From a virus (taxonomy: Duplodnaviria; Heunggongvirae; Uroviricota; Caudoviricetes), in IMG/VR virus record IMGVR_UViG_3300045049_000270: a stretch of 64,000 nt of DNA, one strand, 5' to 3'. Under the pieces are notes generated by a model. That model was not told where the DNA came from, ran no database searches, and worked only from the letters and a program-made list of their open reading frames with translations. Position numbers and translations under genes: made by a program. Positions 17,473 through 26,053 of this stretch are shown one piece after another. Numbering within the stretch: the stretch's first letter is position 1; every line of letters starts with the position of its first letter.

Positions 17473-17871
17473 TTATTGTTTCTCTTGTGTTTGTCGTTGT
17501 TTTCTACGTTCTAGATAAGAATGCACGATTTCTTTTCTGCGTTCTGGATTCTTCTCCACCCATTCAGCTTGTTTCGTACGATTGTATTCAGTCCACGAAA
17601 CGTTATCTTTGCGATAACGCTTCGCATATTCAGCCAATATACTGAACGGCCGTTGTTCTTCCTTGCGCGGACGTCCACGGCCATAACCAGTTGCTTTTGT
17701 CTTTTGCCATGCTGCTGACTGTTGCTTTTTCTTTTCACGATATGCGGGATCATTAGCATAACGTTCGCGCTTGCGAGCATTAATCTTTTCTCGATTTGCT
17801 GCTTTGTACTTACGTTCGTATTCTCGCCGTTTTGCTTTCTTTTCTTCTTCAGTCAGCATAATCAGAACCAC
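17473..17871 (-). CDS. basic protein with AT-hook
   Basis: GRGRPRK; Arg/Lys-rich helical repeats. Confidence 0.65.
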   Translation of the reverse strand: MVLIMLTEEEKKAKRREYERKYKAANREKINARKRERYANDPAYREKKKQQSAAWQKTKATGYGRGRPRKEEQRPFSILAEYAKRYRKDNVSWTEYNRTKQAEWVEKNPERRKEIVHSYLERRKQRQTQEKQ

Positions 17872-18422
17872 GTTTTTCTTATTATGGAAGTGTATTCATC
17901 AGCCAAAGCCATGCTCTCGCCAACCAGTTCCACGAAATAGCTTAGTACATCTGCTTTTTCTAATTCGAGTGTTGCTTCTGAATCGCCATATTCATTAACG
18001 ATCTGCATGTTATGCGCTTTGGCTATCTTCATCATAAAGCCGTTTCTTGTCAAACAATAGCTTTTCAATACTTTCACTCGACGGTTACGGCAAACAACCA
18101 TCGCATGTTCAAACAACATCGTTCCGAGGCGCCGGCCGCGATGCTCTTTCTCAACACTCAAACCAATCTCAGCTTCATCAACATTAAACAAATAATATTT
18201 GCCGAGAAGACAAATCTCACAAGCGGCAATAACATTCTGATCCTCATCAAATGCAGCCAATACCATTCTACCGCTATCATGTTTTATGGTAGCATGCTTG
18301 ATAATAAATGCATCATCAACCATCGAACCAAAACGAAGATAGCGATCATCAGCATTTAATCTCAGCAAATGATCGCCATATTTCACCTGCTCATATGTAT
18401 TGAGCATTCTTATTGTATTCAT
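17862..18422 (-). CDS. GNAT-family acetyltransferase
   Basis: HLLRL..DDRYLRFG, AEIGLSV...RGRRLG..L, N..M.KIA; ATG at 18422. Confidence 0.85.
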   Translation of the reverse strand: MNTIRMLNTYEQVKYGDHLLRLNADDRYLRFGSMVDDAFIIKHATIKHDSGRMVLAAFDEDQNVIAACEICLLGKYYLFNVDEAEIGLSVEKEHRGRRLGTMLFEHAMVVCRNRRVKVLKSYCLTRNGFMMKIAKAHNMQIVNEYGDSEATLELEKADVLSYFVELVGESMALADEYTSIIRKTWF

Positions 18423-18432
18423 TTCAACTTCC

Positions 18433-18845
18433 AAAATGGCTTACCGTTGAGAGTACACGGTTACCTATAGCTGGCCTTTTGTTGGATTATGCTCACCCAC
18501 TCCCTCTTTTTTGGTGAGGTTCCCAACGTGTCCACTAGCAGCGATCGCTCCGCTAGTATCCAGCGCGACTGCCCTTTTAGACTGCAGGCATTGCAGTAAT
18601 GTTATGGCTACTTACCACCGTACTCGTGGCTGAACACGTCGAGCGCCATGTTCATTTAAGTCGCTTTATCACCATAACACCGAGTAAATGTCTAGTTGCC
18701 ATCTAGGCAACGCGCCCATCCCTTCGCGCTTGGTCACTGAGACCAAAGACTATATGGTTTACTCATAGTGCTTCACCCCGTATATGATGAAATACACATT
18801 GCCACTTCTTTTGCACACTTGAGTTCAGCGTGCTCTACATCACAA
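18433..18845 (-). ncRNA. candidate large structured RNA (~410 nt)
   Basis: No ORF of 60 aa or more; GC-richer than flanks; about 10 hairpins plus nested long-range helices; promoter TTGCTG-16-TAGAAT at 18851-18878. Confidence 0.65.
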
Positions 18846-18881
18846 ACTCTATTCTACACATTTGGCAATTGGCAGCAAGCC

Positions 18882-19562
18882 TTACTTCTTTGAACGTGAA
18901 TTATACACGGCAAATTTTGAAAGCTTCTGACGGATTGAAACTTTGTTTTTGTTTGCTTCCTTACGTTCAGCTGCTACTTCATTCTTGATTTCATCATGTG
19001 TGGCGTTGAAGTCAACATTCAGTTGGGCCACAGTTTTCTTGAATTCATCTGTTGTCAAATCAGTGTAGAGATTGAAAGTTGAAACAAACGAATCCATTGC
19101 TTTTTTCAATCGACCAAGCCGTTTGATTTTCACTTTCTGTTCGATCTTTTCTTTTTCTTTGTCCTCAGACTTGGAAAGTATTTCTAATATCGCCTGTGTC
19201 GACATACGATCATAATCAATGTCTTTGAATACATAACGTAGTTCAAGATCGTAATATGATCGATAGTAGTTATAGCTGCCATGCCGTACGTTCTCGGTGA
19301 TGGTCAATTTGTCGATATTATCCAACAATGCTTTGGCTTCAGCATCGTCTTCGACTTCGAAGATAAGTGCATCTTTCATCTCATTATCGATTGATTCGCA
19401 CAGTGTCGCAAATTTATGGCGAGAATTATCTTCAAATACATTAAAATACTTGGCACCAGGTGCCAAATTATTAATTGTTTGAAAATTCAAACGCTTCTTA
19501 ATGTCAGCATATGAATATTTGCTAATAGTACCGCGAAATGGCAGGAAAACAAACAAATGCAT
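18882..19562 (-). CDS. hypothetical protein, FKL-related domain plus coiled coil
   Basis: MHLFVF...NLAPGAK...FEVEDDAEAKAL; similar to 16244-16867. Confidence 0.7.
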   Translation of the reverse strand: MHLFVFLPFRGTISKYSYADIKKRLNFQTINNLAPGAKYFNVFEDNSRHKFATLCESIDNEMKDALIFEVEDDAEAKALLDNIDKLTITENVRHGSYNYYRSYYDLELRYVFKDIDYDRMSTQAILEILSKSEDKEKEKIEQKVKIKRLGRLKKAMDSFVSTFNLYTDLTTDEFKKTVAQLNVDFNATHDEIKNEVAAERKEANKNKVSIRQKLSKFAVYNSRSKK

Positions 19563-26039: not shown

Positions 26040-26053
26040 ACAGTCAATAGTTT

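Follow-up and report, generated by a model that had tools for sequence, protein, structure and literature searches.

The window, a stretch of 64,000 nucleotides, comes from a large tailed phage, and its genes include those for a tail fibre, a baseplate, a clamp loader, PhoH and a Clp protease. Judged by the clamp loader, the closest cultured phages are the Pseudomonas PA5oct/Paride types (50%), Agrobacterium Atu_ph07 (48%) and Sinorhizobium Phosso (47%), and because of these relatives the host is probably a proteobacterium. A complete gene for an M16 zinc peptidase is also present in the phage (12152-13477, minus strand; Pfam E 1e-42, no PHROG family). The locus considered here is a gap between a GNAT acetyltransferase gene and an upstream gene coding for 226 amino acids, both on the minus strand (Table 1). 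As had been noticed originally, the gap lacks a long ORF: none of at least 50 amino acids lies inside it, and a plus-strand ORF of 52 amino acids overlaps its promoter end only. The upstream gene has no family in Pfam or PHROG. The GNAT family comprises 14 relatives, and every one that can be aligned shares the ATG start given in Table 1. Nine relatives are 55-61% identical, with members on contigs as long as 522 kb. The sequencing runs that hold this GNAT are soil and rhizosphere metagenomes (six rows, four studies; two of the rows may be the source itself), with no RNA dataset listed among them, and the gene is also on record on a contig of 523,572 bases. Between the GNAT gene and a gene for a 201-aa protein lies a basic, repeat-rich ORF of 132 amino acids (17473-17871, minus strand), which is missing from the homologous phage described below and has a weak PHROG match to a transcriptional regulator.

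Table 1. Features of the gap and of the two genes that border it (positions in the window)
Feature	Position	Strand	Basis or remark
GNAT acetyltransferase gene	17862..18425	-	PF00583, E 1e-6; ATG 18 bases past P27; in-frame TTG at 18434
Upstream 226-aa gene, function unassigned	18882..19562	-	Bounds the RNA on its 5' side; same position in homologue
Sigma70-type promoter-like site, TTGCTG-16-TAGAAT, TGCCA in spacer	18851..18878	-	Sequence; recurrent class
Reduced GOLLD-derived RNA, about 400 nt	18443..18845	-	5' end inferred from promoter; 3' end set at the last hairpin
Single 5' hairpin at the place of the GOLLD cap domain (300-420 nt)	18812..18833	-	Folds in both phages; sequences differ
Short P13 (18805-18802 with 18757-18754) and P14 hairpin (18797-18768)	18754..18805	-	P14: two double-sided changes
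P15 pseudoknot (18764-18758 with 18688-18682)	18682..18764	-	Topology test, pair counts, folding
Three-hairpin junction inside P15, at the GOLLD variable-linker site	18750-18690	-	Topology test, pair counts, folding
P17 (18680-18671 with 18608-18599), enclosing AAAG junction	18599..18680	-	Kept through three one-sided changes
P18 5' strand (18664-18660) and P19 (18654-18631)	inside P17	-	
One 5-bp hairpin replacing P20 and P21	18630-18614	-	P18 span
P22 with loop pseudoknot (18597-18593 with 18585-18581); P18 3' strand (18569-18565)	18565..18597	-	Rfam alignment, pair counts
GOLLD terminal module: P23, P24 (18558-18533), P26 (18527-18481), P27 (18461-18443)	18443..18564	-	RF02032 positions 304-415

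At the gathering cut-offs of Rfam, no match was found in the whole window. In E-value mode, the last 148 nt of the gap RNA (18592-18445, minus strand) matched positions 304-415 of GOLLD, family RF02032, with 51.4 bits (E 1.7e-12). A homologue of the RNA, set in the same gene order within a complete virus record of 523,836 bases (524 kb), matched the same family with 44.7 bits (E 1.6e-8). The gathering cut-off of RF02032 is 150 bits, of which the reduced RNA scores only about a third because whole domains are missing. The possibility foreseen in the original prediction, that the RNA would belong to a known Rfam family, was thus borne out by half, the match being significant yet far under the cut-off. 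Since the cut-off was failed and two described domains are missing, the RNA is classed among variants derived from GOLLD, apart from the canonical members. Between 18300 and 19000, no match up to E 10 was obtained to ROOL, OLE, tmRNA, RNase P RNA, group I introns or riboswitches, which are likewise large multi-junction RNAs of bacteria or phages, and ARAGORN called no tRNA or tmRNA in the 64-kb window, in agreement with the original statement that no tmRNA, RNase P, tRNA or group I intron could be recognised. The expectation of a large phage ncRNA on the scale of GOLLD or ROOL was right, and it is sharpened by the Rfam match and by the topology test described below to an RNA derived from GOLLD itself.

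The terminal module P22-P27 is present with the invariant GOLLD motifs, and the helices follow the order of the GOLLD 3' domain: P13, P14, the P15 pseudoknot, a linker, P17, an AAAG junction, the P18 pseudoknot and P19; after one short hairpin and AGUA come P22, whose loop forms a pseudoknot, and P23-P27. The helices were numbered by our own mapping of the env-38 residue tables onto the sequence, not from a figure. The base of P14 carries a GU..AUUU/GAAGC receptor for L26, its loop is without the usual CAAAA run, and P26 holds an inserted hairpin (within 18527-18481). Each helix first listed for the gap was recovered at its coordinates; the P18 pseudoknot, P13/P14, P22 and P23 had been missed. 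The arrangement was examined with a scripted topology test of four levels (P18, P17, P14 and P15 plus junction motifs). Of 144 distinct GOLLD-like loci, 83 passed all four levels (the two reduced ones and 81 of the 142 others), the structure and the test having been designed with both reduced sequences in view and the test missing 61 of the 144. Its first solution for the window used a poorer register of P17. The comparison GOLLDs came from pattern scans, and all 19 loci tested from the first scan score 280-325 bits. Altogether, the RNA in the gap is very probably derived from GOLLD.

The minus strand had been correctly chosen, as indicated by the strand of the Rfam match and by folding z-scores of -3.47 (minus) and -0.75 (plus). 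The first of these scores does set the minus strand apart from its shuffles, but not from the genome background: 25 control stretches of the genome have a mean z of -1.8 and a minimum of -4.35 (ten shuffles each), and the trimmed RNA of 412 nt reaches -2.35. The z-score was consequently rejected as evidence; the folding energy is unremarkable for this genome, and the case for the RNA therefore rests on homology and conservation. Two further observations concern the linker. The loop and 3' strand of its first hairpin (18746-18730) are complementary, in both phages, to the 3' strand of P18 and the 5' strand of P23 (18569-18560, minus strand), and this may be an alternative pairing, as judged by eye. 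Other GOLLDs often have a tRNA inside the linker, at the site of the three hairpins in the reduced RNA, and one is called there in 13 diverged GOLLDs; the idea that these hairpins are a tRNA remnant was unsupported by ARAGORN or Rfam.

From the upstream stop codon to P13 there are about 70 bases, and between promoter and P13 stands one hairpin, so that there is no cap domain. A split gene with its cap encoded elsewhere was considered and set aside: 13 sequence profiles made from 101 cap regions revealed no separate cap in the window or in the homologous phage, tRNA matches aside. With 10 of 23 outside caps recognised by the largest profile, a cap that has diverged might have escaped this search. 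Farther downstream, the strands of P18 are 93-94 nt apart in both reduced loci, whereas the other 81 have 157-178 nt between them. The P20/P21 arm has lost about 70 bases, and the one 5-bp hairpin found instead is of ambiguous ancestry (P20 or P21). Both reduced loci also lack the L20 kissing motif, which 133 of 140 loci possess, and the A-rich L14, which is seen in 115 of 144.

These losses coincide with the parts through which GOLLD copies are joined. The env-38 GOLLD forms a cage of 14 copies, as described in PMC12286853, and the S. agalactiae GOLLD a 12-mer, with a 10-mer for the 3' domain, as reviewed in PMC12990946. According to the env-38 contact tables, bridges B1-B5 depend on the cap, B6 and B8-B10 on P21, and B7 on L20 (PMC12286853). 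When bridges B1-B10 were mapped by eye, all fell on the cap domain, P21, L20 or an A-run loop, and by this mapping none of the ten is kept in its usual form in the reduced RNA. The contacts of the monomer core outside P21 have counterparts, again by eye (L26 with the base of P14, the A before P15 with P13, and the L22 pseudoknot), as do the P18 and P23 junction contacts of env-38. L24 retains a GNRA-like motif, so that one bridge donor may survive; its receptor is gone. Because the cage-joining parts are absent, folding and function of the reduced RNA are predicted to be independent of the usual cage, and on this structural comparison it probably forms no canonical one.

With moderate confidence, we favour a cage-less GOLLD core, encoded next to a promoter, that would exist as a monomer or small oligomer and would most likely act in trans on the host translation machinery. 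Transcription from the adjacent promoter is likely during infection, and the RNA could be made early and abundantly, together with the phage tRNAs. It would then adopt the GOLLD core fold, either singly or in a small oligomer and not in a cage of 12-14 copies, and might share the function of that core, here taken to be that of a stable decoy or scaffold directed at the host translation machinery. Translation-linked action in trans is offered tentatively; the two grounds for this target are the association of GOLLD with tRNAs and a ribosome pull-down cited in PMC12286853. In the homologous phage, the tRNA nearest to the reduced RNA is 31 kb away. That phage has 61 tRNA matches, mostly in one array (389-402 kb) about 70 kb from the RNA.

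It is also conceivable, though rather unlikely, that the reduced core oligomerises through new symmetric contacts, with self-complementary loops of the P20/P21 stump and of P24 holding together a dimer or a smaller cage. The stump loop is GUAC here and UGAUCA in the homologue, in the same register, and L24 is CGAUCG here; such palindrome switches are taken as evidence for symmetric kissing loops in PMC12286853, and a 375-nt GOLLD 3' domain alone forms 8-12-mers according to PMC12990946. However, only two sequences are compared, a shared palindrome of four bases in one of about seven variable loops would arise by chance in roughly one case of ten, and L24 of the homologue is an imperfect palindrome. 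Moreover, the oligomers of the 3' domain use P20 and P21, which are missing here.

The promoter-like site proposed upstream of the RNA, TTGCTG-16-TAGAAT, is present, although a scan for the strict promoter consensus passed it over. Its counterpart in the homologue reads TTGACG-16-TAGAAT, and both phages contain further sites of this motif class. In the homologous phage, TTGAC-N16-18-TAnAAT was seen at 24 sites of the coding strand against two of the opposite strand, and several copies lie 50-250 bases before tRNA genes. In the form TTGAC-N16/17-TAGAAT, often with TGCCA in the spacer, the class was seen in the window at 26047, 18878, 5880 and 5004 (minus strand), the site at 26047 being a near copy of that of the RNA, and it is listed at 18 sites in the homologous phage, three of which share a longer conserved downstream sequence. 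In one strain contig, a substitution at 18873 moves the -35 box one base nearer to consensus. At the other end, no terminator-like site was found after P27 on the minus strand, so that the release of a discrete RNA would need processing, and as an ORF comes next, read-through into the GNAT operon is likely from the sequence. At 138 GOLLD loci, the 3' end is followed by a U-run in 77 cases, a tRNA in 32 and an ORF in 6, both reduced RNAs being among the last.

These features bear on a second alternative, already raised in the original prediction as a complex cis-regulatory leader, in which the GNAT operon has taken over the GOLLD core as its 5' leader, which would stabilise the message or set its translation in cis. 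The RNA's own promoter, the lack of a terminator-like site, the closeness of P27 to the start codon and the run into an ORF, seen at so few GOLLD loci, all fit such a role. The GNAT gene is next to the RNA in the homologue as well, but the whole gene block is syntenic in both phages and the shared neighbour is therefore of little weight. Whereas the missing terminator and the ORF right behind the RNA speak for the leader, neither the stretch from P27 to the start codon, with the surroundings of the ribosome-binding site, nor the helix GAAGUGGC/GCCAUUUU, thought to close the whole unit, is conserved. The folding energy of this helix is -8.9 kcal/mol here, where it forms, and -2.2 kcal/mol in the homologue, where it does not. 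Its 5' strand is moreover required by P13, a helix formed in both phages (-5.5 and -5.1 kcal/mol), and the closing helix was discarded as a conserved element. No GOLLD-like RNA lies near four distant phage GNATs (24-30% identical), and related cultured phages with a full GOLLD lack this GNAT. A leader is possible but rather unlikely, and a core acting in trans is still preferred.

That the RNA belongs to a separate family, related to GOLLD in its last 150 bases only and not in the 250 bases before them, is quite improbable. Only model positions 304-415 align, and the module models are not significant across the window: a P13/P14 model built from 31 canonical loci, among which covariation is strong, gave nothing significant, and a sequence-only model of J13/15-P18 (the P15-P18 stretch) failed to find its module. 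Against this stand four long-range pairings in the GOLLD order with the GOLLD junction motifs, a combination met in none of 1500 shuffles of the upstream part of each sequence, of which none went beyond level 2 of 4. Moreover, the best local match of the P13/P14 model lies in the predicted register in both phages (E 0.15 and 0.033 for 300 bases). The conserved sequence of about 400 bases is best read as a reduced GOLLD, not as a new family.

The reduced RNA and its homologue are 82% identical (332/404), compared with 70-77% for the four flanking genes. Of 90 alignable base pairs, 75 are the same in the two phages, 5 have changed on both sides, 9 on one side, and 1 is broken, a count that leaves out five unalignable helices (the 5' hairpin, outer P13, the middle linker hairpin, P19 and the L26 insert). 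Fourteen of the 15 changed pairs still pair, which is equalled by 14 of 500 shuffles. When 118 pairs were counted on the plain alignment with the unalignable helices included, 15 were broken; four hairpins among these five helices re-form in both phages when folded separately. Two sequences of the reduced form have been found, so that covariation is thin, and since the pseudoknots are invariant between the two phages, they are supported only through GOLLD homology. Among strain contigs, 24 substitutions in 1801 bases include none in the RNA (binomial P ~0.002), in data that come from at most two samples and partly from low-depth contigs, and next to coding DNA that tolerates silent changes; the one insertion lies in an A-run loop. 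The large deletions relative to GOLLD and the weak -35 box in this window could suggest a decaying remnant without function, but this very improbable reading is largely refuted by the changed pairs that still pair, by an identity above that of the neighbouring genes, by the absence of strain substitutions in the RNA and by the intact promoter of the homologue. Selection has preserved the GOLLD core in the absence of the canonical bridges. Toxins that acetylate tRNAs occur among the GNATs and the RNA adjoins the GNAT gene, but the original suggestion of an RNA antitoxin neutralising a toxic GNAT is hardly credible and was unsupported, as the best matches of this GNAT are weak, below cut-off and to Pat-type and small-molecule acetyltransferases, no toxin family was matched in Pfam, PHROG or NCBIfam, and known GNAT toxins are paired with protein antitoxins.

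Homologues of the reduced form were found on one contig only. BLAST of the RNA against 50,697 phage records returned three chance matches, and against plasmids none. No further reduced homologue appeared in viral pattern scans (68 and 44 stretches, 120 of about 700, and 120 of about 190); in another viral scan of 58 stretches, the 57 found besides the known homologue were full-length GOLLDs. A metagenome scan of 118 stretches yielded 62 with a GOLLD tail, none close to the reduced RNA, and a GTDB scan gave four chance matches. Atu_ph07, Paride and SCTP-2 have no credible GOLLD match. Eight metagenome loci form a distinct GOLLD subtype with another junction before P18 and a rearranged P17-P21, one of them scoring 117.5 bits. 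No description of such a reduced GOLLD was found in the literature checked, the published alignment (supplement 4 of PMC12286853) excepted, and no GOLLD appears in the passages covered of PMC12191101.

For GOLLD, structures published in 2025 led to the idea of a container, as set out in PMC12286853; the reduced form separates the fold from the cage and would be a natural test of whether the cage is the purpose of GOLLD. One possibility, to be held with some reserve, is that this is a natural cage-less GOLLD in which the intramolecular core was kept whole while every canonical bridge was dropped, the ancient function being that of the compact core. If so, the GOLLD core would be a ligand-binding or catalytic RNA and the nanocage an add-on, and the cage here may have been swapped for a dimer held by palindromic loops.

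Compared with known GOLLDs, the reduced RNA is likewise phage-encoded, with tail fibre, baseplate and clamp loader genes in the window and the homologue in a complete virus record. Also in common are P22-P27 with the invariant motifs, P13/P14, P15, P17, P18 and P19 in the same order, the L22 pseudoknot, L26 with its receptor at the base of P14, and a variable insert at the linker site. Unlike GOLLD, it has about 400 nt instead of 700-830, no cap, one 5-bp hairpin for P20 and P21, neither the L20 kissing motif nor the A-rich L14, a structured linker of three hairpins, and no terminator, running into an ORF, and it scores 51 bits against a cut-off of 150. A tRNA or tmRNA lies no more than about 1.2 kb away at 73 of the 144 loci, whereas neither reduced RNA has one so close. 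Among cultured relatives, the Sinorhizobium jumbo phage Phosso (PV764938) and the Xanthomonas phage XacN1 (AP018399), with clamp loaders 47% and 40% identical to that of the window, have GOLLDs above the Rfam cut-off (186.6 and 227.3 bits) that, unlike the reduced RNA, match the whole model of 416 positions; neither phage has this GNAT. These GOLLDs lie at PV764938.1 33003-34050 and at AP018399.1 38570-38983 and 357365-357778, unannotated in the stretches viewed, and a XacN1 GOLLD follows a two-piece tmRNA call. Like the reduced RNA, the Phosso GOLLD has a promoter-like site and an L26 insert hairpin and lies among protein genes; in contrast to it, the Phosso GOLLD retains a cap region, its linker resembles a tRNA, and it has a terminator-like hairpin. 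The reduced RNA is half the size and easily transcribed, and it can be compared directly with the full GOLLD of Phosso, a culturable jumbo phage of soil.
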